NCBI GenBank assembly: GCA_965231825.1
Contig: OZ246889.1
Location: 4,697,859-4,761,858 of the forward strand
Source: Acidobacteriota bacterium
GTDB taxonomy: Bacteria > Acidobacteriota > UBA6911 > RPQK01 > JAJDTT01
Direction: 5' to 3'
DNA: 64,000 bases
Part shown: piece by piece, positions 6,300 to 29,900 of the stretch
Numbering within the stretch: position 1 is the stretch's first letter
Layout: every line of letters begins with the position of its first letter
Translations under genes and position numbers: made by a program
Notes under the pieces: model-generated
Databases searched by the model: none
What the model was told of the DNA's origin: nothing
The model's input: the letters and a program-made list of their open reading frames with translations, nothing else

Positions 6300-7103
6300 T
6301 TGATCGCGACTGACGCGGAGGCTCTACAAGATTGGTTCTGTGTGCTGAGCCCGCCACTGGACGGCGAGTCCAACATGCGGATCGACCGGCGGCTTCAACT
6401 CTTCGCAGAGCGAAGCCGCCGTCCCGTGACGCTGGTTCGTTTTTACGGTTGGGCGGAGCCGACCGTCTCACTGGGGTGTCATCAAAGTCCTGACCTGGCT
6501 TTCGCCAAGGACTACTGCCAGGCCCACGGCATCCCGTGGGTCCGTCGTCCCACCGGCGGTCGAGCCGTGTTCCACCACGATGAACTCACCTACATGGTGA
6601 CGTCCAACGACGGCAGCCATTTTCCGCTGCAGAGCGTCCGGAGGATCCATCGCGAGATTTCGTCGGCTTTGCAGGCCGGGTTGTCCCGGTTGGGAATCCG
6701 TCCCGTATCGGCGCCAGGAAACAGGCTCCGGGACCGGGCTCTGACACGAGCCCAAAAACCCTGTTTCGTCGCTCCTTCACGGCACGAACTCGTCCAAGGC
6801 ACGAGAAAAATGGTGGGGAGCGCTCAGAAGAAGACGAAGCGCAGCTTCCTGCAGCATGGTTCGATTCCGTTGGTGATTCACTACGATCTCATGGCCGCCG
6901 CTCTGGGAGTCGACCCGGAGTTTCTGAGATCGAAGACCGTCAGTGTATCGGAAGCCGCCGGCCGGCCGGTCTCCTTCCGCGAGTTGTCCCACGCCCTGAT
7001 TCAGGGCTTTCAGCAAGGATTCGGCATCCGCTTCCGGAAGACGATTGACGACTCCCGCGAGTGGTCTCTGGCCATTGCCTCCGGTCAAGCCGTTATGCTA
7101 TAA
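6300..7103 (+). CDS. lipoate-protein ligase/octanoyltransferase family protein (BPL/LPL catalytic domain; LplA/LipM-like)
   Basis: RRPTGGRAVFHHDELTYMV matches the lipoyl/octanoyl transferase R-R-x-x-G-G-x-A-V-x-H-D motif. The start may be the internal M at 6372. Confidence 0.65.
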   Translation: MIATDAEALQDWFCVLSPPLDGESNMRIDRRLQLFAERSRRPVTLVRFYGWAEPTVSLGCHQSPDLAFAKDYCQAHGIPWVRRPTGGRAVFHHDELTYMVTSNDGSHFPLQSVRRIHREISSALQAGLSRLGIRPVSAPGNRLRDRALTRAQKPCFVAPSRHELVQGTRKMVGSAQKKTKRSFLQHGSIPLVIHYDLMAAALGVDPEFLRSKTVSVSEAAGRPVSFRELSHALIQGFQQGFGIRFRKTIDDSREWSLAIASGQAVML

Positions 7104-7138
7104 GAACTCGGCAATTCGCAGCGATTATCTGGTCCGTG

Positions 7139-8203
7139 ATGACGAAGAGTAAGGCCTCGGCGGAACTCACTCAACGCACTTACCAAGTGCTCCACCTGCT
7201 GGTTCTCGAGTACATTCGAACCGGCATGCCCGTCGGCTCCAAGCGGTTGGCGTCACTCCATCAGGAGGGAATCAGTCCCGCGACCATCCGAGCCATCATG
7301 GCCCGGCTGGAACAGGCAGGCTTCCTGAATCAGCCCCACACATCCGCGGGAAGAGTCCCCACCGCCAAGGGCTTTCAGTTTTATATCGATGGATTGGAGA
7401 GGACTCCCGACCTGCCCAACCGGCAAGTGGCCCGGATCCGGCAGATGCTGGAGCAGGAGACGGATCCTGGCGACCTCATGGCCCAGACCTCTCAGATCCT
7501 TTCCCGGCTTTCCAACAATCTGGGGTTCGTCCTGGCGCCGCCTCAATCAGTGTCGGTTCTGAAACGGATCGAGTTCGTGAAGATCTCATCCCGCCGAATC
7601 CTGGCCATACTCGTGACTCGCGCGGGGTTGGTTCAGAGCCGTCTGATTGCGACCAGCCGCCGCCTGAGCCAGGACGATCTGGACCGGGCCGGCCGCTGTC
7701 TCCAGGACCAATTTGAGGGGAGGACCCTTTCCCATATCCGTCGAGAGCTCCGGAGGCTTCAATCCCGGACCGCGCAAGACAGCCGTCCTCGTACCGACGC
7801 CATCCGCCTGGGATCGGCCAGTCTGGTTGGACCGGGGCGAAATCCGGGAAGTGATTCCGAAGTCTATTTCGGCGGAACCTCGAGGCTGCTTCAACAACCG
7901 GAGTTGAACGATCAGGATCGGGCAGCCGGCCTGTTCAGGACCATGGAGAAGAAGAGCCGATTGGCCGAGGTGCTCACCAGGCGCCTCGATGCCGACCAAC
8001 CTGCCCCGCGGGTGACCCTGGACCTGGATCGGCACATCCCGGAGATGCGGGGTTGGGCCATGATTTCCTCACCCTATCTCTACCGTGAACGAGTGGCGGG
8101 CAGCTTGGGGATTCTCGGCCCCAGGCGGATGAAATACGACAAGGGGATCAGTTTGGTTGGATACGTGGCCCGGCTCTTCGGTCAGATCTTGAGCGCGACT
8201 TGA
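7139..8203 (+). CDS. hrcA: heat-inducible transcription repressor HrcA
   Basis: N-terminal winged-helix LTQRTYQVLHLLVLEYIRTGMPVGSKRLA. ~354 aa from the ATG at 7139. Followed by grpE. Confidence 0.85.
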   Translation: MTKSKASAELTQRTYQVLHLLVLEYIRTGMPVGSKRLASLHQEGISPATIRAIMARLEQAGFLNQPHTSAGRVPTAKGFQFYIDGLERTPDLPNRQVARIRQMLEQETDPGDLMAQTSQILSRLSNNLGFVLAPPQSVSVLKRIEFVKISSRRILAILVTRAGLVQSRLIATSRRLSQDDLDRAGRCLQDQFEGRTLSHIRRELRRLQSRTAQDSRPRTDAIRLGSASLVGPGRNPGSDSEVYFGGTSRLLQQPELNDQDRAAGLFRTMEKKSRLAEVLTRRLDADQPAPRVTLDLDRHIPEMRGWAMISSPYLYRERVAGSLGILGPRRMKYDKGISLVGYVARLFGQILSAT

Positions 8204-8336
8204 TCCGCCTGTGAACCGTCCACCTGCGCCCTGAGCGTCAGGGCCGGCTCCGGACCGCCACCAGCTCCCACTTCGAACGTGCAAGCTGATCACGCCAAGC
8301 CGTTGCGATTGGCGCAATTTCCACGACCACGAAGAG

Positions 8337-8942
8337 TTGACGACAATGGAACGACCGGAAGACATCCAGAATCAGACTGAAGACTCTCGGGACGAAGAAG
8401 ACCGGGAAATGCCGCAAGGGGACTCCGCCCCGGCCGAGACCGCCGAGTCGGTCTACGAAGAGGCGCTCGAGGACCTCGCCAAGCAACGCGACAAGTACTA
8501 CGATCTGCTGCTCCGGAAACAGGCCGAGTTCGACAACTTCCGAAAGCGGACGGAGAAGAACCGGTTCGAAGCCCGCCTGCAGGGACAGGCCGATCTGGTG
8601 TTGGACCTGCTCCCAGTACTGGATGCCTGCACCAAGGGATTGGAGGCCATGTCGGCGGCCGATCCGGATCCCGCCCTCACGCCGTATCTGGAGGGCTACC
8701 GCCTGCTCGCCGAACAGATGAAGGCGGTGTTGGAGAAGTTCCAGGTGACGACCGCTCCCGGAGTGGGCAGCCAGTTCGACCCCAGGGTTCACGAGGCGGT
8801 GCTTCGAGAGTTCACCCGGGAACATGACGAGGGTACCGTCATCGAGGAGTATCGGCCCGGTTATCTCATTCGCGACAAGCTCCTGCGGGCGGCCCAGGTC
8901 AAGGTGGCCATGCCGCCGCCGGAGGAGTCTCCGGACCAATAG
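8337..8942 (+). CDS. grpE: nucleotide exchange factor GrpE
   Basis: DKYYDLLLRKQAEFDNFRKRTEK is a GrpE signature. 201 aa. Lies immediately downstream of hrcA. Confidence 0.85.
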   Translation: MTTMERPEDIQNQTEDSRDEEDREMPQGDSAPAETAESVYEEALEDLAKQRDKYYDLLLRKQAEFDNFRKRTEKNRFEARLQGQADLVLDLLPVLDACTKGLEAMSAADPDPALTPYLEGYRLLAEQMKAVLEKFQVTTAPGVGSQFDPRVHEAVLREFTREHDEGTVIEEYRPGYLIRDKLLRAAQVKVAMPPPEESPDQ

Positions 8943-9178
8943 CGTTCCCGGCGGCACACTTCGACTTCAAAGGCAAATCCAGCGAAAAGTTCAAGTGACA
9001 GACTGTCTACGAAACTTGATCGCGACGCATGACCCTCTCTTTCGCACCGTCGAAATCCCGACTGTACAAGACGAGCCGACAAATGCTCCGCCGATCCAAA
9101 CTCGGGTTTGTCCTTCTGGGTTGGTCTCGACGGCAAACGAGTTCCTGACGATTCACAGACTGCGCCAAAGGGGGCAAC

Positions 9179-18100: not shown

Positions 18101-19624
18101 ATGAATCAAGGAGTGATTCCGAAACATCTCCACTTCCGGGACCCGACCCCGCATCTGGACTGGGACCGGCTCCCGGTACGAGTGACCTCCGACGCAACGG
18201 ATTGGCCGCATCATGCCGGGCGTCCGCCGCGTGCGGGAGTGAGTTCGTTCGGCCTGTCGGGAACCAACGCACACGTCGTGGTGGAGGCTTGCGGGATACC
18301 GGACGGCGCCTCCTCCACACTCGATGAAGCGCGAAGGCCCGTGGGATCCGCTCGATCCGTCACCGTATCTCAGCCGGCGTCCGGCCTGTCTCCGTCAACA
18401 GTCGATTTGGCTCCTCGCGCGAAACGGATCCTGCCCCTCTCCGGCAGGTCGGACCAGGCGCTCCGGGACTTGGCGCAGCGGTACCTCTCCTGGCTTGACG
18501 AGCGCGCCGGAGATCTTTCGTCCGAATCTGGTGCGCCGGATTCGGTTTTGTCGGATATGGCCTGGACGGCGGGCGTCGGAAGGAGTCATTTCGAGCATCG
18601 GTCCGGTGTCGTTTTCCAGGATGCAGGTTCTTTGCGAGACCGGTTGAACGCGCTCGCAGCGACCGGCGGCGAGACGGAACCACCCACGGCACCGAAGACG
18701 GCCTTCGCATATGCCGGAACGGGCAGCCAATGGGCCGGAATGGGACGGACGCTGTACGAGAGCGAGCCGATCGTCCGCACCGTGCTGGATCGGTGCGACT
18801 CTGCTCTCAAGGAGGCGAGAGGAGGAGACTCGTTACTGAGCGTTCTGTTCGGCCAACCGGGCGCCGGCGGTGTCCTGGACGATCCCGAATGGGCGCAACC
18901 GGCGATCTACGCGTTGGAATGCGCGCTCACCGCGCTGTGGTCCAGCGTCGGGATCCAACCGAGCGTCGTCGCCGGCCATGGTATCGGCGAGTTGGCCGCG
19001 GCCCAGACCGCTGCGGTCTTCAGCCTTGAAGCGGGCTTGCAGTTGGCGGCGGCGCGGGGGGCGGTGACGGCGGACCTCCTGCGAGTGGGGCCGGCGACGC
19101 CTACGGTGGACGGTTTGGATGCGGCAATACGAAGAATCCAGTTCGCTCCGCCGTCTCTCGTCCTGGTCAGCGGTGTGACCGGCGATATCTTGGATCCGGA
19201 TGACGCGCAAGACGGTGAATACTGGCGCCGCCAGGCACACGAAACGGCGGGTTTCGGCAGAAGCGTCCGGTCGCTGGCGAGCCTCGAAGTTGATTTGGTG
19301 GCGGAGATCGGCCCCGATGCCGTACTGGGTTCGATGCTGCCCCGGTCTTGGCCCGGACAGACCGGTGGCGCCGGGTCGACCTTCGCACCACCGGCCGTGC
19401 TTCAGAGTCTACAGCGCCCGTCCTCGAAGGAGCCGGCAGCGGATTGCGGCGGGGGTTTCGTGAATGCGGTGGCAGGAGCGTACGAAGCGGGTCTCCCGGT
19501 TTCCTTCGCCGGGCTGTTCGCTGGGGAAATCCGGCACCGGATTTCCATACCGGATTACCCGTTCCAGCGACGACGTCACTGGTTCAGAACTCCGGAACCG
19601 GCTTCATCCGGCTCAGGAATTTGA
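9179..19624 (+). CDS. type I polyketide synthase, 3481 aa. Domain order KS1-AT1-DH-cMT-psiKR-ER-KR-ACP-KS2-AT2(degenerate). No TE domain.
   Basis: KS1 ~9266-10544: DTACSSS, EAHGTGT, NLGHLE. AT1 ~10979-11850: GHSLGE, AYHS. DH ~12100-12950: HxxxGxxxxP as DHRVFGRLVVP, and DGCFQ. cMT ~13480-14230: LEVGAGTGSAT. psiKR ~14230-14880. ER ~14900-15850: LIHAGAGGVGLAAIQ. KR ~15895-16440: TGGLGGIG, but NHAAAN replaces NYAAAN. ACP ~16740-16960: LGMDSL. KS2 ~17025-18290: DVGCSSS, EAHGGGS, NIGHLE. AT2 ~18690-19560: GHGIGE, ~70 aa shorter than AT1. A ~10.4-kb continuous ORF. Confidence 0.9.
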   Translation: MMVHDGVFGSSAKPSTERGAENRADMSPGEPIAIVGMACRFPGAENLSAFWRLLEAGRHAVTEGDPGSGKGRVGQLFSDSAVQSVACRYGAYLDGLDQFDAPFFRISPVEAQLLDPQQRLMLETSWQALEDAGIDPDRLKGSRTGVYAGISNNEYRGMILDASETSEPAASLYSVTGTSFNTAIGRVAFVLGLEGPAIALDTACSSSLVAMHQAVSGLERGEADLALAGGVHAILSGRLLEMRANAGMLSPDGRCATFDAAANGYVRGEGCGIVVLKRLSEAEADGDRIWGVIRGASVNQDGASPGLTVPNEASQERVMVDALLRAGVRPVDVDYVEAHGTGTVVGDPIELRSTGAAYGEGRSADCPLLIGSVKTNLGHLEAAAGVAALIKVVLSMRHRRIPRHLHFKDPTPEVDWDRLPLRVPATAMDWPHHSGRPPRAGMSGFGWSGTNAHVVVEGYEATDGAAADSDRSRRPAGSPQLIAVSLPEQTPEPVWAEPEMTRRSTRILPLSGRSEGALRESAERYLNWLDGHALELGSGAAAGDPLLSDMAWTAAVGRSHFSHRAGVLFRDAGSLRGRLREVVESEDGLGTAPAPESVTKMAFVYTGQASQWVGMGAQLYRSEPVVRAVLDRCEDVFQEARGLSLLDAMFGRGETAGDLDDPAWTQPAIYALECALTALWSSAGVRPGVVLGHSLGELAAAQAAGVFSLEDGLRFAAARGVLMGNLPGDGAMGAIFAPASHVAAAVEEMNASSDGPGLSVAADNGAHQAVSGPATDVESILERFEGEEVRVRRLRRSPAYHSPLVDPVLDDLEAALSGVSVAPPSLTFVSTLTGRAVDPATALDGAYWRRQTREPVAFRRAVATLAELGIEAVVEIGPHAVLGPMLTLAWPESADPAQVPPVVSSLRRPGSQVSKEEAEDAFAAAVARAYEAGLPISFPGLFAGESRRRISLPGYPFQHESHWIRAPNRRRPSAGHPLLGARHESASGEISFETELFPSDPAWLNDHRVFGRLVVPGALYGAMAVAASASEDTGLQALEDMQLRNPLILPEEEAEERIGEEGRKLQVLLDPPGDDPSRRVRILSRGGGGGWTLHAEGLFSPGSRRPGSEPSLDLENLRSDLPAQDVAAFYRSKAGLGIDLGPQFRTLEAVWSGAGEALGEVAIRNPENEIRSDLHPLLLDGCFQVMSAAAGTAGNEGGVTYLPFAWERLWLTEQVPDRVVCHARMREAPPDRAAASETTEPPEVLTGDLRIYDPSGVLLGGLEGYTVKRATRAALLSAVEGLNELLYEIVWRDSTLAPGMPAADFLPSPAAVAAPPSGLFSDYLAAQGVGREDRNSLLDDLERLSWAYAIKTLDQLGWERQAGADVDSEDLRRRLRVLGDHKRLFRRLLEMLAKAGILVEAGDGFTVVVGSGDPLPEGMANPEEVAARLADLYPHGSNEIGLFRRSAGALPEVLRGGADPLTLLFSSGEPTAADLYLKAPVARAANRMLGDAVRALVASLPPERRLRVLEVGAGTGSATASVLPELPAGRFDYTYTDISAGFFAEAEGRFGEADGALEYRVLDIEKDPVAQGYESHGYDLLIASNVLHATRYLQETLKHCRDLLAPSGQLLALENLRGQGWLDLTFGQLDGWWRFADSYRPHHALASPAIWRQALGDAGFPEVAVLGVDESETAGQPDRGVIMAQGPAEVDEPAGAWILAADEDNVAAELAAELAARNQRVVLAHRQAPENGDGAEDGAGTVRTAVEMERRESWRSLVNDLPDDVPFAGVVHLAALDGHGPEATSAEMAVDARRATETALALVQGVADSDVVPEKGVWLVTRGGQVLERERHGELAGALLWGFGKVVAREAQHLQPRMIDLDPDAAGFLSPLADELLHPDTETHIAYRGGFRRAARLVRSEEGAERLTLPEGTQWLLEPDPRGALERMHVQPMPVRPLDPRDVRVAVEATGLNFWDVFRSIGFIEEGLLGGEMCGHILEVGSDVSTVAVGDRVVGLAFGTFGPEVVTREEMVAPAPAGMSVTALATLPTVFVSAALSYELAALKAGDRVLIHAGAGGVGLAAIQLAHAAGAEVYTTASAKKRAHLRSLGVKHVFDSRQTAFGQEILDATSGAGVDVVLNSLTGEGFIDASLSCLAQGGRFVELARRGILSEEEMAALRPDVDYFILELDTLKEHDPAWPGASLHGVMEQLASGEVTPLIHSRWPLSEARAAMRFMRAARHLGKIVFTTSPLTRGRLREDRTYLVTGGLGGIGCALAEWLADHGAGAIVLNGRRSPDEAAEKVIRALGNRGATVRVELADVTDAAAVEEMLGRMDQDLPPLGGVIHSVGVLSDQSLGNQSWDRFEQVLWPKVLGAWHLHRTTMHQDLDLFVLFSSVAGVLGNPGQANHAAANAFLDQLAGHRRALGLPGQTIAWGAWSGLGEAEEQRERISRQLAVSGTGWISPQQGLRAFERLVRDDATTAMVAAVDWPVYGEAVEGRPSLLEDLLSHVSETGAESPAWSDDLSSRLREAPPGLHEELLVSFLQQEVQAVLRLPSAPAPTVAFFDLGMDSLMAVELRNRLNRAFSGEYTAPNTIVFDYPDIAGLASHLAGELGGVDAEAATQAQPEPESRPSATIDDDGIAIVGMACRFPGAPNLAAFWRLLQAGADAVTEGRQDSGSWRGVAGDPESSDPGVRRGGFVEEIDRFDSRFFRIAPIEARMMDPRQRMLLETTWHAIEDAGVDPDGLKGSRTGVYVGIGNGDYRDLAMASGETHGYLGTSMSIAAGRIAFALGLTGPAVPLDVGCSSSLVAAHQAAFALRQNEVDMALVGGVNAILSPEVTRFMREAGMLSASGRCRTFDSAADGYVRGEGCGMVVLKRLSDATADGDRIWGVIRGSAVNQNGPSAGLIIPNGPAQERVIEEALTRAGIPPAGVDYLEAHGGGSNLGDPIEVLAAAAVFGRGREAEHPLLMGSVKTNIGHLECAAGIASLIKVVLAMNQGVIPKHLHFRDPTPHLDWDRLPVRVTSDATDWPHHAGRPPRAGVSSFGLSGTNAHVVVEACGIPDGASSTLDEARRPVGSARSVTVSQPASGLSPSTVDLAPRAKRILPLSGRSDQALRDLAQRYLSWLDERAGDLSSESGAPDSVLSDMAWTAGVGRSHFEHRSGVVFQDAGSLRDRLNALAATGGETEPPTAPKTAFAYAGTGSQWAGMGRTLYESEPIVRTVLDRCDSALKEARGGDSLLSVLFGQPGAGGVLDDPEWAQPAIYALECALTALWSSVGIQPSVVAGHGIGELAAAQTAAVFSLEAGLQLAAARGAVTADLLRVGPATPTVDGLDAAIRRIQFAPPSLVLVSGVTGDILDPDDAQDGEYWRRQAHETAGFGRSVRSLASLEVDLVAEIGPDAVLGSMLPRSWPGQTGGAGSTFAPPAVLQSLQRPSSKEPAADCGGGFVNAVAGAYEAGLPVSFAGLFAGEIRHRISIPDYPFQRRRHWFRTPEPASSGSGI
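16337..16339 (+). other. KR active-site position: His codon (cac) where the catalytic Tyr of the NYAAAN motif is expected
   Basis: gcg aat cac gcg gcg gcc aat encodes A-N-H-A-A-A-N. The canonical reductive KR motif is N-Y-A-A-A-N. Tyr to His needs a single T-to-C transition. Confidence 0.6.
18980..18982 (+). other. AT2 nucleophile position: Gly codon (ggt) in GHGIG where GHSxG Ser is expected
   Basis: ggc cat ggt atc ggc gag encodes G-H-G-I-G-E, versus AT1 ggc cac agc ctg gga gag encoding G-H-S-L-G-E. AT2 also lacks ~70 aa corresponding to the small subdomain that carries AYHS in AT1. Confidence 0.6.
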
Positions 19625-19923
19625 CGCGCTCTCCGAGGCGGGGGATCGCTGCAGCGACCAGGGTGGACATGTTCCCAAGCAAAGACGAACCTGTGCACTT
19701 GATTGACGTGAAGAGATGAGCTTGCTACCCTTCTTCCCGTTTCAACCCTCCAAATCTTACGAAAGGATCAGCAACCATGGCTTCGACCGAGGAGCGGATC
19801 AGAGAACTCGTTGATGAGAACCTTGAAGTGGACGGTCGTCCGTTAGGCAAACCACTGGATCTGAACACGAACCTGATCGAGGCCGGAGTTTCCTCCATGG
19901 ATGCCGTTGCGTTCATGCAGGTG
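19439..19923. repeat. tandem direct repeat copy 1 (485 bp), covering the PKS 3' end, the intergenic region and the 5' part of the ACP gene
   Basis: Base-for-base identical to 19924-20408 on manual comparison. The ORF-track peptides 19464..19706 and 19949..20191 are identical, as are 19929..20204 and the tail of 19348..19719. Confidence 0.85.
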
Positions 19924-20109
19924 GCGGATTGCGGCGGGGGTTTCGTGAATGCGGTGGCAGGAGCGTACGAAGCGGGTCTCCCGGTTTCCTTCGCCGGGCT
20001 GTTCGCTGGGGAAATCCGGCACCGGATTTCCATACCGGATTACCCGTTCCAGCGACGACGTCACTGGTTCAGAACTCCGGAACCGGCTTCATCCGGCTCA
20101 GGAATTTGA
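19777..20109 (+). pseudogene. chimeric ORF created by the tandem duplication: ACP N-terminus (49 aa) fused to the post-AT linker tail of the PKS
   Basis: MASTEERIRELV...GVSSMDAVAFMQV followed by ADCGGGFVNAVAGAYEAGLPVSFAGLFAGEIRHRISIPDYPFQRRRHWFRTPEPASSGSGI, which is identical to the PKS C-terminus. Confidence 0.5.
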
Positions 20110-20408
20110 CGCGCTCTCCGAGGCGGGGGATCGCTGCAGCGACCAGGGTGGACATGTTCCCAAGCAAAGACGAACCTGTGCACTTGATTGACGTGAAGAG
20201 ATGAGCTTGCTACCCTTCTTCCCGTTTCAACCCTCCAAATCTTACGAAAGGATCAGCAACCATGGCTTCGACCGAGGAGCGGATCAGAGAACTCGTTGAT
20301 GAGAACCTTGAAGTGGACGGTCGTCCGTTAGGCAAACCACTGGATCTGAACACGAACCTGATCGAGGCCGGAGTTTCCTCCATGGATGCCGTTGCGTTCA
20401 TGCAGGTG
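19924..20408. repeat. tandem direct repeat copy 2 (485 bp)
   Basis: Identical to 19439-19923. The junction at 19923/19924 fuses ACP codons 1-49 in frame to the PKS C-terminal tail. Confidence 0.85.
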
Positions 20409-20507
20409 GTGGCCAAGGAGTTCAACGTCACGATTCCGCCGGAAGAATGCGCGAAGATTCGATCCGTCGGGATGTTGATCGAGTATCTCGATACCCACGC
20501 CGGCTGA
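20262..20507 (+). CDS. discrete acyl carrier protein (81 aa)
   Basis: LIEAGVSSMDAVAFMQVVAKEF is a phosphopantetheine-attachment Ser motif in helix-II context. Size is typical of a stand-alone ACP. A good RBS-like aaaggatcagcaacc sits before the ATG. Confidence 0.8.
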   Translation: MASTEERIRELVDENLEVDGRPLGKPLDLNTNLIEAGVSSMDAVAFMQVVAKEFNVTIPPEECAKIRSVGMLIEYLDTHAG

Positions 20508-20855
20508 ACGTTCCTAAATCCCAAAGTGGTCTGCTGCTGAGGCAACGGCCACTGACGTTGTGTCACTCCGCGGGGACATTGCCGGTAGTTTAGCTTCCCA
20601 CTTCAGCTGGTTCGGTGAAACGGGTCCGACCTTTAATTTCCCTTTCCGTACGAAAGTGTTGGTGCCGTCCATTCAGGAAAACCTTTTGCCTTACGACGGT
20701 CCCCAGTTTCAATAGCCAGAACCGATTCCGGTGGCATACCCGGATCGTGACTTCGACCGCAGGGTCCGAAATCAAGGGCAAATGATGAACCTGATGGCTT
20801 CTCGACGGGGGCCGCATTATCCGTCCGACGGTAACATGACGGAGAAACCAGCGGC

Positions 20856-21755
20856 TTGATGAACACGTGGAAAGTCCCCGAACCGCTTTCAACCCACGAC
20901 GTCCGCGTGGATGATGACACCGTCATCACGCTGAGACGCCACGGAAATCCGGCGGGACCGCGACTCGTTCTGTGCCACGGCAACGGTCTGGCCATCGATC
21001 TTTACTACCCTTTCTGGTCGCTCCTGACCGACGAATTCGATCTGGTCGTCTACGATCTCAGAAACCACGGCTGGAATTCCTCCGGATCTCTTCGAGAGCA
21101 GAACATTCCGACGCTGATTCGTGATCATGACCGTCTTGTCGACGCGATCGATCGACGCTACGGGAAGAAGCCGAAAATAGGCGTATTTCATTCCGTCTCG
21201 GCGCTGATCACGCTGCTGTCACCGACTCTGGGAAGCGGATTCTCGGCCCGCGTCCTGTTTGATCCACCCTTGTGCAAGCCGGATGACGGCTATGCGGAAT
21301 TCGAACGGGCATCGACGCGGGTGGCCGCCATGACCCGGCGCCGTACGGACCGGTTTGAGACCAGGGAGGCGTTGGCCGGTTTTCTTCCCTATTTGCCGGC
21401 CTTCCAACGCGTTGTGCCCGGTGTTTGCGATCTCGTAGCGAGGACGACGCTTCGCGAATCTGAAGATGGCGACGGTTATGTGCTTCGATGTCCACCCGAA
21501 TGCGAAGCGCAACTCGTCGATTACGCGAGAGCATTTGCCGTCCTGGTGGACTTTGAGACGCTTCTCTGCCCGACCAAGGTTATCGGGGCCGATCCGACCC
21601 TGCCCTACTCGTATCTGCCCACGATGAACCTGAGCAATATTCTCACCGTCGACTACGATTTTGTTCCCGAAGCGACACATCTTCTTCAACTCGAACAACC
21701 GGAGGAGTGTGTCGCGGCCATGCGTGAATTCATCGATCCCATCGTCCACACTTGA
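20856..21755 (+). CDS. alpha/beta-fold hydrolase, candidate chain-release or editing thioesterase-like enzyme for the PKS
   Basis: LVLCHGNGLAIDLYYPFW (HG oxyanion region), nucleophile elbow IGVFHSVSAL (Ser retained, flanking Gly replaced), and a downstream Asp/His-containing C-terminal half. 299 aa. Confidence 0.7.
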   Translation: MMNTWKVPEPLSTHDVRVDDDTVITLRRHGNPAGPRLVLCHGNGLAIDLYYPFWSLLTDEFDLVVYDLRNHGWNSSGSLREQNIPTLIRDHDRLVDAIDRRYGKKPKIGVFHSVSALITLLSPTLGSGFSARVLFDPPLCKPDDGYAEFERASTRVAAMTRRRTDRFETREALAGFLPYLPAFQRVVPGVCDLVARTTLRESEDGDGYVLRCPPECEAQLVDYARAFAVLVDFETLLCPTKVIGADPTLPYSYLPTMNLSNILTVDYDFVPEATHLLQLEQPEECVAAMREFIDPIVHT

Positions 21756-21948
21756 TCCGAATGGCCACCCGCGAGCGGGAGCCGGAAAGTCTCAATGCGC
21801 CTTTGGAGCCTGCATACCAAGTATCTTGATGCGCGAGGAACCCGCGTCCTTGAATCGGCCGGGTAACGATCTTATGTTAGGGGCTGACGTCCACCCGTCG
21901 TGAATCGCGACCCTAGCGGGATTCCGACGGAAGAGGGAGAAAGCGGCT

Positions 21949-23067
21949 TTGTCCAAGAGAGACTATTACGAAGTTCTCGGCGTGGATCGTAAGGCCACGC
22001 AGCAGGACCTGAAGGCGGCGTACCGGAAGCTCGCCATCAAGTTCCACCCGGACAAGAATCCGGGAGACAAACAGGCCGAAGAGCGTTTCAAAGAGGCCGC
22101 CGAAGCCTACAGCGTTCTAGTCGACCCTCAAAAGCGCGCCCAATACGATCGTTTTGGCCACGCTGGGGTCAGCGGCGCCGGCGCCGGGGGTGGTGGATTC
22201 AGCGGCGATCCCTTCGCCGATTTCAGCGATGTCCTGGGCGATCTCTTCGGTTTCGGCGATCTCTTCGGAGGCGGACGCTCCGGCCGCGGGACACGGTCCC
22301 GCCGCGGCGCCGACCTGAGGTACGATTTCCGAATCTCGTTCGAAGACGCCGTCTTCGGAGCCACGACCAAGATCAAGATCCCCAGACAGGAAACTTGCGA
22401 TTCCTGCAATGGGTCCGGGGCCGATCCCGGGACCGGCCCCATCACCTGCCCCGCCTGTCAGGGTCAGGGCCAGCAGCGCTACCAGCAGGGCTTCTTTACC
22501 ATCAGCCGCACCTGTTCCCATTGCCAGGGCTCGGGACGGATCGTCAAGAACCGGTGCCGCCGGTGCCAGGGGGCGGGCCGGGTTCAGCGGGAAAAAGTCC
22601 TGGAGATCAAGATTCCGCCCGGCGTCGACCAAGGGTCGAAACTGCGCATCGTCGGCGAAGGAGAGGCCGGCCCCAACAAGGGGCCTTCGGGAGACCTCTA
22701 CGTGGTCCTTTCCGTCGAGGAACACCCCTTCTTCCGCCGTGATCAAAACGACCTTCACTGCGAGCTTCCGGTGAGTTTCGTGCAGGCCGCGCTGGGGACC
22801 GAACTGGTGGTCCCGACACTGGAGGGGACGGAAAAGTTGCGGCTGCCGGAAGGAACTCAGCCCGGTACGGTATTCCGCCTCAGAGGCCGGGGAGTCGTGA
22901 GTCCCCGGGGACACGGCCGGGGAGATCAGTTCGTCAAGGTGAAGGTCACCTTTCCCAAGCGGCTGAGCCGCGAACAACGGGAGTTGCTGCTCCAGCTGGA
23001 AACTCTTGAGGAGTCGAACCCGGACAACGAGGGCTTCTTCGGCAAGGTCAAGGAAGTATTCGGATAA
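21949..23067 (+). CDS. dnaJ: molecular chaperone DnaJ
   Basis: J-domain YYEVLGV...HPDKN, G/F-rich region and four CxxCxGxG zinc-finger repeats. 372 aa. Confidence 0.92.
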
Positions 23068-24208: not shown

Positions 24209-26914
24209 TCAACTACAGCCTGAAGTGGTCCCGCAGACGGTGCAGACATAGCAGTTTCCGTTTCGCTGCATCAGGTTCCCGCACTGGAGACAGGCGGGCG
24301 AATCCGCCTGAACGTCCTGCACCAGCTTTCCCGACGGGCTGGCCGGTTCGGCAGACCGGGAGTACTCGGAAAAACTCACTTGGACTCCATCCTGGACGCT
24401 TCCGTTGGGCCGAACCTGGTGGATGCCGAGCGTCTCCTGGATCTCGGTGTCCAGAAATCGACTCGCCAGGTAACGGACCACGTAGTCGGGAATGGAGGTC
24501 GCGAACGGAATCTGGGGATTGTCGGTGAATCCAGCCGGTTCGAAGCTCATGTGGGAGAACATTCGGACATAGTCCTCAAGAGGCACTCCTCGCTGGACCC
24601 CCATGGAAATGGCGATGGCCCAGGCCATGGCCATGCCCTGCAGCGTGGAGCCCTGCTTCGAGAAATTGACGAAGATTTCGCCCAACTCCTCGTCTTCCGG
24701 ATACATCCCCATGGTCAGGAAACCCTTGAATCCACGGATTCGGAATTCATGCTGTAGCGCCGGGTGATCCTTGGGCATGTTCCGGTGCTGAGCCGTGAGA
24801 CCCTGGCGCCCGCTGTCCTTGGTCGACAGCGGTTGGACCAGCTTGCATCCGTCCCGGTAGATGGAGACGGACTTCATTCCATGTTTCCAGCCCTGGATAT
24901 AGGCATCCTTGATCTCTTCGACCGTGGCCGAATTGGGGAGATTGACGGTCTTGGAAATCGCTCCGGAGAGAAAGGGCTGGACGGCGCCGCACATCTTGAT
25001 GTGCCCCATGGGATGAATGAAACGGCTCCCCTTGGCCGGGGTGTCCGCGCAATCGAATACGGGGAGATGGTCCCTCACCAGGTTGGGCGCACCCTCTATC
25101 GTATCCTTCCGGTTGATGTAGTCCAGAATCGCCTTCTGCTCCCCCTCGTCGTACCCCAGAGTCCGGAGAGCGCGGGGAATGGTGTGGTTGACGATCTTGA
25201 GGGTGCCTCCGCCGACCAGCTTCTTGATCTTCACCAGTGAGAAGTCCGGCTCGATGCCGGTGGTGTCGCAATCCATCATGAAGGCGATGGTTCCCGTCGG
25301 CGCCAGAAGAGTCACCTGTGCGTTCCTGAAGCCCGCCTGAGTCCCCTTCTCGATGGCTTCGTCCCAAACTTCCATGCTGGCGTGCAGCAGGTTCATGGGC
25401 ACCAGGGCCGAATCGATCTGGGAAAGGGCACTCCGGTGCTTGTGGATGACACCCATCATGGGAATACGGTTGCTTTCGAAGCCGGCGAAGGTCCCCATGC
25501 GCTCGGCGATCCGGGAACTGGTCAAGTAGGCCTGCCCCGTCATCAGCGCGGTGATGGCGGCGGCCGTGTTCCGCGCCTGGTCGCTGTCGTAGGGCAGGCC
25601 CTGCGCCATCAGGTACGCGCCCAAATTCGCGAATCCCAATCCCAACGTCCTGAAGTCGTGACTGATCTCTTCGATCTCTTCAGTGGGATAGCTGGAGTTG
25701 TCGACGATGATCTCCTGGGCCAGGATCAGGACGGATACGGCATGGCGGAAGGACTTGATGTCGAACTGCCCGTCCGGCTTCAGGAACTTCATCAGGTTCA
25801 GAGAGGCCAGGTTGCATGCCGAGTTGTCGAGGAAGACGTACTCGGAGCAAGGATTGCAGGCATTTATGGGACCGGCGTTGGGACTCGTGTGCCACTCGTT
25901 GAGAGTGGTCTTGAATTGCAGGCCGGGATCGCCGCACTGCCACGTGGCTTCGGCGACCCACTGCATCATATCGGCAGCCTTGTAGACGCGGTCGACCTTG
26001 CCGTCGGTGACCCGGCGAGTTCTCCACTCGCCGTCGGAAATCACCGCTTTCATGAATTCATCCGTCACCCCGACGCTGTTGTTGGCGTTCTGGAATTGGA
26101 CGGACCGGTAGGCCTCACCATCGATGGAGTCGTCATACCCCAATTCGATGAGCTGCTGAGCCTTCTTCTCTTCCTTGGCCTTGCACCAGATGTACTCCTC
26201 GATGTCGGGATGTTCGGCATCGAGAATGACCATCTTGGCGGCCCGGCGGGTTGCGCCGCCGCTCTTGATCGCTCCGGCGAAGCTGTCATATCCCCGCATG
26301 AAGGAGACGGGACCCGAGGCAAATCCTCCGGCGGCGAGGGGTTCCGTGGAGGCGCGGATCCTGGACAGGTTCACGCCCGAGCCGGAGCCTCCCTTGAAAA
26401 TGGTGGCTTCGGTCCGGGCCAGCTTCATGATGTGCTCCATGGAATCGTCCACGGTGTTGATGAAGCAGGCGGAACACTGGGGCTTCTGCTTGATCCCGAC
26501 GTTGAACTGAACCGGCGAATTGAACGCCGCGACCTGATGCAGAAGGAGATAACTCAGCTCGTAGTTGAAGGTCTTGGCGTCACTCTCCGAGTCGAAGTAA
26601 TCCATCTTGGAGCCCCAATCCGCGATGGTATCGACGATGCGCCCGATGAGTTGCTTGACGCTCCGCTCCCGCCCGGGGGTTCCCAGGTGGCCGCGGAAGT
26701 ACTTGCTGGAAACGATGTCGGTTGCCCGTTGGGACCAGAACTTGGGAAACTCCAGATCGTCTTGGCGGAAGCTGACCTTGCCCGTCTTCCAATCCTTGAT
26801 TTCAGCGGAACGCGTTTCCCATTCCACATCATCGAAGGGATGGATGTCGGGTCTGGAGAAATGGTGCTTCAATTGAATCCGAGATCCCGATACCTCCTGC
26901 GCCAACTTCCGCAT
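24209..26914 (-). CDS. nrdJ: class II (adenosylcobalamin-dependent) ribonucleotide reductase NrdJ with C-terminal Cys4 zinc ribbon
   Basis: 901 aa. The RNR large-subunit fold is recognisable across the protein, and the C-terminus is CLQCGNLMQRNGNCYVCTVCG. Confidence 0.88.
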   Translation of the reverse strand: MRKLAQEVSGSRIQLKHHFSRPDIHPFDDVEWETRSAEIKDWKTGKVSFRQDDLEFPKFWSQRATDIVSSKYFRGHLGTPGRERSVKQLIGRIVDTIADWGSKMDYFDSESDAKTFNYELSYLLLHQVAAFNSPVQFNVGIKQKPQCSACFINTVDDSMEHIMKLARTEATIFKGGSGSGVNLSRIRASTEPLAAGGFASGPVSFMRGYDSFAGAIKSGGATRRAAKMVILDAEHPDIEEYIWCKAKEEKKAQQLIELGYDDSIDGEAYRSVQFQNANNSVGVTDEFMKAVISDGEWRTRRVTDGKVDRVYKAADMMQWVAEATWQCGDPGLQFKTTLNEWHTSPNAGPINACNPCSEYVFLDNSACNLASLNLMKFLKPDGQFDIKSFRHAVSVLILAQEIIVDNSSYPTEEIEEISHDFRTLGLGFANLGAYLMAQGLPYDSDQARNTAAAITALMTGQAYLTSSRIAERMGTFAGFESNRIPMMGVIHKHRSALSQIDSALVPMNLLHASMEVWDEAIEKGTQAGFRNAQVTLLAPTGTIAFMMDCDTTGIEPDFSLVKIKKLVGGGTLKIVNHTIPRALRTLGYDEGEQKAILDYINRKDTIEGAPNLVRDHLPVFDCADTPAKGSRFIHPMGHIKMCGAVQPFLSGAISKTVNLPNSATVEEIKDAYIQGWKHGMKSVSIYRDGCKLVQPLSTKDSGRQGLTAQHRNMPKDHPALQHEFRIRGFKGFLTMGMYPEDEELGEIFVNFSKQGSTLQGMAMAWAIAISMGVQRGVPLEDYVRMFSHMSFEPAGFTDNPQIPFATSIPDYVVRYLASRFLDTEIQETLGIHQVRPNGSVQDGVQVSFSEYSRSAEPASPSGKLVQDVQADSPACLQCGNLMQRNGNCYVCTVCGTTSGCS

Positions 26915-27726: not shown

Positions 27727-29052
27727 CTAAAACAGCAGGCGAGCCAAAACCAACAAGTTGAAGCTGGTGATCGAGAGATACACGTACTGCTGAAAGTGAG
27801 GCCAGCCCTTCCAGGTGCAGCGTCCGACTCCGAAGACTCGCTTGAGCCACGAGATGCAACCTTCGATGCCGGCCCGGAATCTTCGCAGTTGCCGGTAGAC
27901 CCAACTGGAGCGCACCATCTCAGGGACCTTCAGTCCGCGTTTCTTGGCAAAAGCAACGTCTTGGATCCCCTGCTCCTTGGCCCAGTCCAGATTGGAGCGG
28001 CTGGCAAAACAGCCGTCGCAACTGACCTGTCGAGGCCAACGGCCGTACAGATCATGCTGGCGCCGCAGCCAGGGCTGGAACTGAGCGGCATCGTTGGGAT
28101 TCCCCCGCACGATCTCACCATCCAGCATCAGGCCGGAGGCGCCTCCGGTCAGAAACAGCTTGTGCCCAAAGACCGTTTCCCGGCGCTTCTTTTTGATGAT
28201 GTTGGTGTGCTCCTCAAACAGGGAGAGGACTTTCTCATCGGCCGGAACCTTCTCCCCCCGCAGGACCCGACGCTCGGTCTGAGCGATGATCTTGGCCGTC
28301 AAGTCCAAGTAATGGCGTAACTTTCCCGCAATGACCTGACTCGGAAGGTCCGTCCACGGGTCCGCTTGCCGCAGGGCCATCGTGGCGTAATGAGCCGTCT
28401 TGCGAGCGACCTTCAGCAGATCTCGATAGGTCTGCTGCCGACGCTTTCCTCGACGGTTCTTGATCTCCAGACACCGCCGCTTGGCCCGGCGCCGGTGATC
28501 GTGCAAGACGATCTTGTGATGACGGGCCAACCAGCGAAGCAGCCGGGTGAGGACTCGAACCGAGTCGCACAACAACTGGGAATCGGTCGGATAGGGGATG
28601 GGACTTTCCACGGCCGTGGCATCGACTCGAATCTTACGACCCCGTTCCAGCCCCTGGCGGTGGGCCCATTGCACCAGGAGCCGGTTGATCTGCTGCCAGG
28701 TGCCGGCTTGGATACGGCTGATGTTCTCCTGAAGGCAGGAGGCACTGGGGGCCCAGCAAAAGGAAAAACGAGCGAAGCGGCGAAAGCTCTGGGAGTCACT
28801 CAAGAGGAACGCCAACTTGGCGTAGGACAGTTGATGCCACTGCTGGAGGATGGCCGCGCGCAGGACCTGCTCGGCGGAGAGGCCTGGAGCCCCCTGACCG
28901 GAGCTGGCGATGTCACCCAGATCGTGTAGAACCAGATCCAGGATCGAGGGGTTGTCATCCAAGATCTTGGAAACGGCTCTCAGCTCCCGGGCGAGTCGGT
29001 GATCGGGCCAGAGCCCGGAAAGCGGAAGTTGGTTTTCCCGTTTTCGACGCAT
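27727..29052 (-). CDS. DDE transposase, IS4/IS5/IS1182-superfamily-like (441 aa)
   Basis: N-terminal DUF772-like region (LSAEQVLRAAILQQWHQLSYAKLAFLLSDSQSFRRFARF) and a C-terminal DDE-type catalytic region. An imperfect inverted repeat pair lies directly upstream of the start at 29053-29153. Confidence 0.7.
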   Translation of the reverse strand: MRRKRENQLPLSGLWPDHRLARELRAVSKILDDNPSILDLVLHDLGDIASSGQGAPGLSAEQVLRAAILQQWHQLSYAKLAFLLSDSQSFRRFARFSFCWAPSASCLQENISRIQAGTWQQINRLLVQWAHRQGLERGRKIRVDATAVESPIPYPTDSQLLCDSVRVLTRLLRWLARHHKIVLHDHRRRAKRRCLEIKNRRGKRRQQTYRDLLKVARKTAHYATMALRQADPWTDLPSQVIAGKLRHYLDLTAKIIAQTERRVLRGEKVPADEKVLSLFEEHTNIIKKKRRETVFGHKLFLTGGASGLMLDGEIVRGNPNDAAQFQPWLRRQHDLYGRWPRQVSCDGCFASRSNLDWAKEQGIQDVAFAKKRGLKVPEMVRSSWVYRQLRRFRAGIEGCISWLKRVFGVGRCTWKGWPHFQQYVYLSITSFNLLVLARLLF

Positions 29053-29213: not shown

Positions 29214-29900
29214 TTAAAGCTGTGGATACAGGCTCTTTAGCTTGATCCGTGCATCCTCCGTCTTGAACTGCCAGTCGATCTCGGTTTGCCGTTGGTTCCG
29301 ATCCGCAACCCAAGCCCCGATCTCCCGTTGCATCCCGGCCAGGCTTGGAATCCGCCGGTCCAGGCATTGTCCGCACAGCGCGCTCAATTCGATTTCTGCA
29401 ATGTTGAGCCAACTGCCGTGCTTCGGCGTGTGGTGGATTTCCAGTCGTTGTGCCAGTTGGCGAGCGTGTCGAGGCTCGTAGGTCGCGTACAGCGATTCGA
29501 TTCCGTGCGGGTTCAGGTTGTCCATGACCAGGACCACCCGCTCGGCCTCCGGGTATCGCCTCTCCAGCATGCCCTCGATCCACCGGGCCCAATCCTGTCG
29601 CGTGCGCCGCTCGGCCGCCGCCACATGGCAGCGGCCGGTCAGTGGCTCCACCTCCAGGAAGATCTGCGCGACTCCGTTACGCACGTACTCATGCTCGACC
29701 CGCTGCGGCCGGCCGGGCGCGACCGGCAACGGCTCCCGCACTTCTCCGATCAACTGCTTGTTGGTCTCGTCCATGCAGACCACCGGTCGACGGGGGTCGT
29801 AGGGACGGGCATAGACTTCTAAAACGTCCTCCATGCAGGCTACGAATGCGGCGCTGCCCCGGGGCGGGATCCGCCAGTACTTCTTTCGATGAGGCTGCAA
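29214..29900 (-). CDS. IS630 transposase OrfB (DDE catalytic domain)
   Basis: QPHRKKYWRIPPRGS...VCMDETNKQL...VLVMDNLNPHGIESL...EIHHTPKHGSWLNIAEIELSAL. The Tc1/IS630-type DD(E/D) context is present. Confidence 0.75.
   Translation of the reverse strand: MQPHRKKYWRIPPRGSAAFVACMEDVLEVYARPYDPRRPVVCMDETNKQLIGEVREPLPVAPGRPQRVEHEYVRNGVAQIFLEVEPLTGRCHVAAAERRTRQDWARWIEGMLERRYPEAERVVLVMDNLNPHGIESLYATYEPRHARQLAQRLEIHHTPKHGSWLNIAEIELSALCGQCLDRRIPSLAGMQREIGAWVADRNQRQTEIDWQFKTEDARIKLKSLYPQL

Follow-up and report, generated by a model that had tools for sequence, protein, structure and literature searches.

Two families of small, mono-modular polyketide synthases (PKSs) have been described from sponge microbiomes. 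Sup PKSs, unusual, small and monomodular, have been proposed to make mid-chain-branched fatty acids, and they are dominant in high-microbial-abundance sponges, with their producer unresolved (PMC4245539). Their genes dominate PKS surveys of sponge microbiomes, and both product and producers are unsettled. The second PKS/fatty acid synthase (FAS) family, likewise widespread in sponge symbionts and of unknown product, is represented by SwfA, whose ketosynthase (KS), acyltransferase (AT), dehydratase (DH), enoylreductase (ER), ketoreductase (KR) and acyl carrier protein (ACP) domains follow the order KS-AT-DH-ER-KR-ACP; SwfA lacks both a methyltransferase (MT) and a second KS-AT, it is accompanied by a reductase/sulfotransferase and a radical SAM enzyme, and its KS has no DPQQ motif (PMC3908369). 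In the same source the Sup gene product SupE is annotated as a permease (PMC3908369). Here we analyzed a 64,000-nt stretch of DNA from an Acidobacteriota bacterium (assembly GCA_965231825.1, contig OZ246889.1, positions 4,697,859 to 4,761,858, forward strand; hereafter the window), which encodes a type I PKS of 3481 aa that ends in a second, apparently intact KS (KS2) followed by a degenerate, shortened AT (AT2, here called AT0). We find that this KS-AT0 ending is a conserved design of widespread small symbiont PKS clusters, and not a local oddity or a product of decay.

The PKS gene spans 10.4 kb (9179..19624) on the forward strand, which also carries all domains and partner genes described below, and translation probably starts either from the ATG at 9182 or from Met at aa 26. 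The open reading frame (ORF) list, the translation and Pfam give the domain order KS1-AT1-DH-cMT-ER-KR-ACP1-KS2-AT2, where cMT is a C-methyltransferase. The C-terminal part is laid out as a cis-AT KS-AT didomain, with KS2 (17036..18289, aa 2620–3037), a CurL-like/RhiE-like KS-AT linker domain (18290..18694; Pfam PF22621 and PF22336 on aa 3084–3161), the large subdomain of an AT (AT0; 18695..19504, aa 3173–3442) and a post-AT linker closing on the YPFxxxxxW pattern (FAGLFAGEIRHRISIPDYPFQRRRHW), which together with a 13-aa tail and the stop codon occupies 19505..19621. When the second KS-AT copy is aligned to the first, the two are 53% identical over 944 aligned columns, and nearly all gaps fall in one block inside AT2.

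Motif mapping and an alignment of relatives mark KS2 as catalytically complete. A reading of the window made without database searches (the sequence-only reading) had assigned it a full Cys/His/His triad, and all three residues are present, as Cys2783 in DVGCSSS (nt 17525–17527), His2918 in EAHGGGS and His2958 in NIGHLE, together with Lys2953 in GSVKTN, so that KS2 carries the triad plus conserved Lys by which an elongating KS is recognized. It shares 61% identity with KS1 and about 69% with the KS2 of relatives. All 50 family members compared have the Cys and the Lys in their terminal KS, and the two His are present in 48 and 49 of them; the full Cys-His-Lys-His set is found at 47 of 51 genomic loci.

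AT0, in contrast to AT1, has lost each of the residues that make a cis-AT competent, namely the Ser of GHSxG, the catalytic His and the Gln of the GQ motif. The nucleophile elbow reads GHGIG (aa 3266–3270, nt 18974–18988), with Gly3268, encoded by GGT, at the position that is a Ser encoded by AGC in the GHSLG of AT1. The GQ-motif Gln is an oxyanion-hole residue in active ATs; here Thr3181 stands in its place (AGTGSQ in AT2, TGQASQ in AT1). The interval between the AAARG and DxLxAA anchors is 95 residues in AT1 and 22 in AT2, a deletion of 73 aa that maps to aa 3294–3310 and takes out the AYHS motif (His801 in AT1), and with it the small subdomain that bears the catalytic His. The NCBIfam profile FabD (TIGR00128) correspondingly aligns to AT2 over positions 2–121 of 290 only. 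An AlphaFold2 (AF2) model of aa 3151–3481, built from 14 family sequences (pLDDT 75, pTM 0.77), finds its best match in the AT of the CurL KS-AT didomain 4mz0 (E 8e-19, TMq 0.70) and also matches the KS-AT didomains 2qo3 and 2hg4, and in this model the ferredoxin-like small subdomain is absent and a short, low-confidence helix and loop take its place. A GHSxG motif hidden elsewhere in AT2 was ruled out by a motif scan, in which no G.S.G or GHS motif appeared anywhere in aa 3100–3481; neither an intact elbow nor a full-length AT2 was found. The protein then stops 13 aa past the post-AT motif YPFQRRRHW, and neither the translation nor Pfam places an ACP or a thioesterase (TE) after AT2 in this ORF. 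The Gly at the nucleophile position, the shortening by about 70 aa with loss of the AYHS segment, and the absence of any ACP or TE behind the post-AT linker had all been claimed in the sequence-only reading, and each is borne out. The remark made there that ggt lies one transition from agt is correct as to the codon; its implication of a recent change is not, because Gly occupies the position family-wide, which excludes a recent Ser-to-Gly point mutation and makes the remark irrelevant.

The sequence-only reading had suggested a search for PKSs that end in KS-AT(degenerate). The KS2-AT2 query matched thousands of relatives, and in 78 of the best 120 homologues a short AT reaches to within a few residues of the protein's own C terminus; nearly all of these short ATs have GxGxG (such as GQGVG, GHGLG and GEGVG) for GHSxG and lack the His-bearing segment. 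A scan with one genome per species yielded 53 loci with a short AT, of which 43 have the stop codon no more than 25 codons after the linker motif YPFQRRRHW, and Gly occupies the nucleophile position in 37 of the 53. The KS-AT0 architecture is standard for a large, already described family. In an alignment of 14 sequences (A1), the invariant positions are the two outer Gly of the elbow, the Gly replacing Ser, and nearly the entire post-AT linker (FxGLFAGExRxR...PxYPFxR..W); the linker is the best-conserved stretch of the AT0 region, with columns F293–W318 invariant. The loci come from metagenome-assembled genomes (MAGs) of more than 10 phyla, including Latescibacterota, Chloroflexota/Dehalococcoidia, Gemmatimonadota, Acidobacteriota and Nitrospirota, with further ones in Alpha- and Gammaproteobacteria, Binatia, Dadabacteria, Acidimicrobiia, Rhodothermaceae and others, and the names of many bins suggest a sponge origin (APA_, RHO, COS, SB06xx, Candidatus Palauibacter irciniicola). 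The closest relatives of the window's cluster are metagenome scaffolds.

To quantify constraint, ratios of nonsynonymous to synonymous substitution (dN/dS) were calculated by the Nei-Gojobori method, only for locus pairs with unsaturated synonymous divergence (dS 0.2–0.5). The values are 0.07–0.12 for KS2, 0.15–0.16 for AT1 and 0.25–0.38 for AT0, which makes KS2 the most constrained of the three domains compared, and constraint on AT0 is weaker than on a working AT by a factor of two to three, with purifying selection still clear. Based on the conserved residues of KS2 and on these ratios, KS2 is predicted to be a working condensing enzyme and AT0 a structural remnant kept as a scaffold, in line with the earlier description of a terminal KS with a structural AT remnant. 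The terminal KS domains resemble one another (mean 68%) more than they resemble the N-terminal KS domains (59%), with overlapping ranges (minimum of 59% within the terminal group, maximum of 65% between groups), which suggests that the internal KS-AT duplication is, on balance, older than the spread of the family. In the relative L001 (2584–12844) two genes encode the PKS, one for a 2457-aa protein from KS to KR and the other for a 947-aa protein with ACP, KS and AT0. Some locus pairs are close in KS2 and AT0 and distant in AT1, such as L001 and L063 (83% and 82% identity against 57%), and this mismatch suggests recombination between the two PKS halves, or the presence of paralogues.

Two genes follow the PKS in the window. 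The first (20262..20507) encodes a discrete ACP of 81 aa with the motif GVSSMD, and the second (20856..21755) an alpha/beta hydrolase of 299 aa with an HG oxyanion motif, an FHSVS elbow, a DPP motif and a C-terminal His; Pfam agrees with the earlier designation of both as genes of these types. The Ser of the ACP is kept in at least 98% of 40 homologues, and the protein is not the housekeeping AcpP, for which it scores 35 bits where the cutoff is 70. In the hydrolase the motifs HG, xHSxS, DPP and the C-terminal His are conserved among homologues, and identity is at least 67% (67–100%) across the 120 best clusters (homologues P0121–P0240). It is far better conserved across phyla than AT0 (about 45–58%) or KS2 (about 60–70%), and its nucleophile elbow, F-H-S-V-S, is unusual compared with G-x-S-x-G. 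The discrete ACP and the hydrolase are conserved neighbours of the KS-AT0 ending: among the 53 loci, an ACP lies nearby in 35, a hydrolase in 36, an NCS2-family permease in 21 and an Sfp-type phosphopantetheinyl transferase (PPTase) in 18. The usual distance of ACP and hydrolase from the end of the KS-AT0 reading frame is 0.1–3.5 kb. Frequently the next gene is the ACP, which in 12 loci starts directly past the stop (+71 to +229 nt). The fullest order was found in locus L002, where a PKS of 3396 aa is followed by ACP, PPTase and hydrolase, and then by the permease on the opposite strand. When the presence of the discrete ACP was compared with the His pair of KS2 across loci, nearly every KS2 proved intact.

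The upstream part of the PKS forms its sole complete module, KS-AT-DH-MT-ER-KR-ACP, with a C-methyltransferase and a full reducing loop by Pfam. KS1 (9272..10552) has Cys204 and carries the primer motifs DPQQR and HGTGT, and the translation reveals no loading domain ahead of it; AT1 (10985..11911) is intact, with Ser694 in GHSLG, His801 in AYHS and the GQ motif, and is of malonyl type by motif; the reducing and methylating DH-cMT-ER-KR loop spans 12104..16429; and ACP1 (16742..16942) has Ser2550 in GMDSL. In the KR, His2387 (16337–16339) stands at the position of the catalytic Tyr (sequence GQANHAAANAFLD), as it does in all 44 KR-containing family hits, and across all fetched loci His-type KRs lie beside a C-methyltransferase in 54 of 58 modules, and 13 of 14 Tyr-type KRs lack one. 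According to a review, the KR Tyr is "sometimes replaced by histidine" (PMC7327777); the papers searched contained no mention of a link between His-type KRs and a methyltransferase.

Taking these elements together, we lean, by a modest preponderance, towards a model in which KS2 elongates the chain from ACP1 onto the discrete ACP, with AT0 as a scaffold and the hydrolase acting externally. The KS1-to-ACP1 module would add one malonate-derived C2 unit to a fatty-acyl starter, methylate it and reduce it, giving an alpha-methyl-acyl chain on ACP1, which KS2 would take over and condense with malonyl on the discrete ACP. As AT0 cannot load the discrete ACP, AT1 or the cellular FabD would have to malonylate it. 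AT0 would persist as the scaffold that a cis-AT-type KS needs, comprising the linker domain, the AT large subdomain and the post-AT linker folding back onto the KS. The resulting 3-oxo-4-methyl-acyl-ACP could then be elongated further, giving a fatty acid with a methyl branch in mid-chain of the kind that Sup PKSs are proposed to make, or alternatively be released or transferred by the conserved hydrolase. ACP loading, the direction of chain flow and the product are all inferred here, and flow through the discrete ACP as well as the substrate of the hydrolase are read from gene order only. The sequence-only reading had held that KS2 must use a trans carrier, with the discrete ACP as the obvious candidate, and that an external enzyme, the hydrolase, releases the product. 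The trans carrier is favoured by the ACP neighbour in 35 of 53 loci with its active-site Ser kept, although "must" goes too far, since ACP1 could serve in cis; the release enzyme is favoured by the hydrolase neighbour in 36 of 53 loci with active-site residues kept. A trans-acting ACP with an external hydrolase is nevertheless a plausible and the best-supported reading.

Several observations count against this model. The hydrolase matched no curated family above threshold, and its matches in the PDB, by sequence or by profile, were marginal only, so that, with no characterized relative, thioesterase activity is an assumption; its AF2 model (pLDDT 55) was unusable for a fold search. About one third of the loci have no ACP or hydrolase in the fetched flanks, and neither PPTase nor permease is present in the window. 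No "Sup" name occurs among homologues of KS2-AT0, of the hydrolase or of the KS1 amplicon region, or among cluster members. In a multimodular relative from a Bryobacterales MAG (L032, 1–17768), a PKS of 5412 aa has KS-AT0 and the post-AT linker at its end, a hydrolase homologue (47% identity) lies behind it, and no discrete ACP homologue is detectable nearby; the terminal KS of this PKS keeps the Cys and has Ser at both His positions (EASAGGS, PNVSNL), and its AT reads AGKGAG. That a KS without both His retains the hydrolase partner implies that condensation is not always part of the KS-AT0 ending. Lastly, ACP1 lies directly upstream of KS2 and could be both donor and acceptor.

This last point leads to the strongest competing explanation, in which the two KSs share one reducing loop and KS2 extends the chain a second time on ACP1 reloaded by AT1. 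The discrete ACP would then have another role, such as bringing the fatty-acyl starter to KS1, and the hydrolase-fold protein would be an acyltransferase or the final thioesterase acting on ACP1. ACP1 is tethered between KR and KS2, within reach of both KSs, AT0 is predicted to be unable to load any ACP, and the discrete ACP is not seen nearby in one third of loci; some starter carrier is needed in any case, because there is no loading domain before KS1. The arrangement would, however, depart from the assembly-line rule for a KS after an ACP, by which the chain passes from ACPn to KSn+1 and then to a downstream ACP, and the discrete ACP most often sits directly behind the KS-AT0 stop. Going through the module twice would also introduce two methyl branches, unless the MT acts selectively. 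We regard this explanation as possible and, on the present evidence, unlikely.

Somewhat less probable still is that KS2-AT0 serves as a non-elongating hand-over station, in which a chain held on the KS2 Cys is passed uncondensed to the discrete ACP or to the hydrolase. Trans-AT PKSs would offer a parallel in their terminal or gatekeeping KS0 domains, and such a station would suit the His-less KS of L032 with its retained hydrolase homologue and undetected ACP, as well as a few Sup-type members that have Asn or Gln at the first KS2 His. The window and 47 of 51 loci retain both His and the Lys, however, and KS2 is strongly constrained, all of which would be needless for mere transacylation.

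The sequence-only reading had also offered the alternative of a vestigial second module, that is, a functionless, decaying remnant of a once bimodular PKS. AT2 has indeed lost all catalytic residues and 73 aa, and there are multimodular relatives whose internal ATs are intact (L032, L035 and L036), but the same degenerate form is kept across more than 10 phyla, AT0 has a dN/dS well below 1 and KS2 the lowest of the three domains, the active-site residues of KS2 are kept in 48–50 of 50 members, and no frameshifts or stops occur; these findings contradict decay, which we consider very improbable. Least credible of all is that the protein end is an assembly or frameshift artefact masking a downstream ACP-TE: although a perfect tandem duplication, absent from an independent assembly, covers the PKS stop and the ACP start, it leaves the PKS reading frame and stop unchanged, and a frameshift is ruled out by that assembly (L080) and 43 of 53 other loci, which end at the same place, the ACP being in all of them a separate gene with its own ATG.

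The duplication itself measures 485 bp (19439..20408, forward strand, with copies at 19439–19923 and 19924–20408) and shows a 7-nt microhomology, GCGGATT, at the junction. Each copy runs from the final 61 codons of the PKS through its stop and the spacer to codon 49 of the ACP gene, and the repeat creates a chimeric ORF (19777–20109) in which the ACP N terminus is joined to the PKS tail. Given that L080, at 95–98% identity, has the unit once, the duplication would be either strain-specific or an assembly artefact.

The island formed by PKS, ACP and hydrolase (9179–21755) lies within a row of heat-shock genes (7061–23067), with hrcA (7061–8203) and grpE (8337–8942) on one side and dnaJ (21949–23067) on the other, and in a related metagenome scaffold (L081) the hydrolase is likewise followed by dnaJ. 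The G+C content is 64–68% in the PKS, 61–63% in the flanks and 57% in the ACP-hydrolase stretch. About 6 kb downstream of the island, past a class II ribonucleotide reductase gene (24209–26914), are two transposase genes on the reverse strand, encoding a DDE_Tnp_1/DUF772 protein (27727–29052) and a DDE_3 protein (29214–29900). No rRNA or other Rfam family was found in the window.

These results turn an odd PKS ending into a defined system of four components (PKS, ACP, PPTase and hydrolase) that can be reconstituted. What the analysis adds is that the constraint on KS2 and the selection on the AT0 scaffold are quantified, that a regular set of four to five partner genes is followed over many phyla, and that a His-less version of the KS-AT0 ending is found on a multimodular PKS (L032). 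As far as sequence can tell, AT0 would also be a natural example of the extent to which an AT can be trimmed with the neighbouring KS still functional, which is relevant to PKS engineering. A more speculative reading, to which we assign a low probability, is that KS2-AT0, the discrete ACP and the hydrolase form a portable cassette of an uncharacterized kind for chain hand-over or off-loading, in which the AT lacking its small subdomain may have taken on a new role as the surface where the free ACP or the hydrolase docks. If so, the cassette would link one type I module for methyl branching to additional rounds of elongation or to incorporation into lipids, and it would have been recruited by multimodular PKSs too, in a version whose KS has no His.

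Among described systems, the cluster family fits the Sup type (supA–supE) best, because the architecture, the five-gene set of the relatives and the distribution over sponge MAGs all agree, an assignment made on these three grounds rather than by direct comparison with SupA sequences. Both are small single-module PKSs with a C-methyltransferase and a full reducing loop, homologues of which abound in sponge-symbiont genomes, and the five genes seen in relatives (PKS, ACP, Sfp-type PPTase, hydrolase and, last, an NCS2 permease) are in agreement with SupE being a permease. The window's own cluster differs in having no PPTase or permease, and is best viewed as a reduced, putative Sup-type cluster of PKS, discrete ACP and alpha/beta hydrolase between grpE and dnaJ. 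Sup clusters were reportedly described by Fieseler et al. (2007, AEM) and Hochmuth et al. (2010, ChemBioChem), and SupA is reported to have been drawn as KS-AT-DH-MT-ER-KR-ACP-KS-AT; the secondary mentions of Sup found in the literature do not give the C-terminal architecture of SupA. From Swf, the window PKS is set apart by its MT, its second KS-AT and the DPQQR of KS1.

For AT0 itself, the nearest analogies would be the vestigial AT surroundings of trans-AT KSs and the pseudo-domains of animal FAS. In the AT-less modules of trans-AT PKSs the KS keeps vestigial AT surroundings (a linker or "AT-docking" remnant) and the extender is loaded from elsewhere. The window shares with these modules a KS beside inactive AT surroundings and a need for external extender loading, but AT0 keeps most of the AT large subdomain (about 270 aa) and has only the small subdomain deleted, the other AT of the PKS is intact, and the scan of window ORFs revealed no free-standing AT gene; because the large subdomain is retained and a discrete AT gene was not found, the definition of a trans-AT module does not apply. 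Terminal KS0 domains likewise end an assembly line, and the terminal KS of L032 is a His-less one fused to AT0, whereas KS2 of the window keeps the full Cys-His-His-Lys set. In mammalian FAS, the pseudo-methyltransferase and pseudo-ketoreductase are degenerate domains kept under selection as scaffolds. AT0, with its dN/dS of 0.25–0.38 and its invariant non-catalytic residues, appears to follow the same principle, in a different type of domain and at the C-terminal end of the protein.

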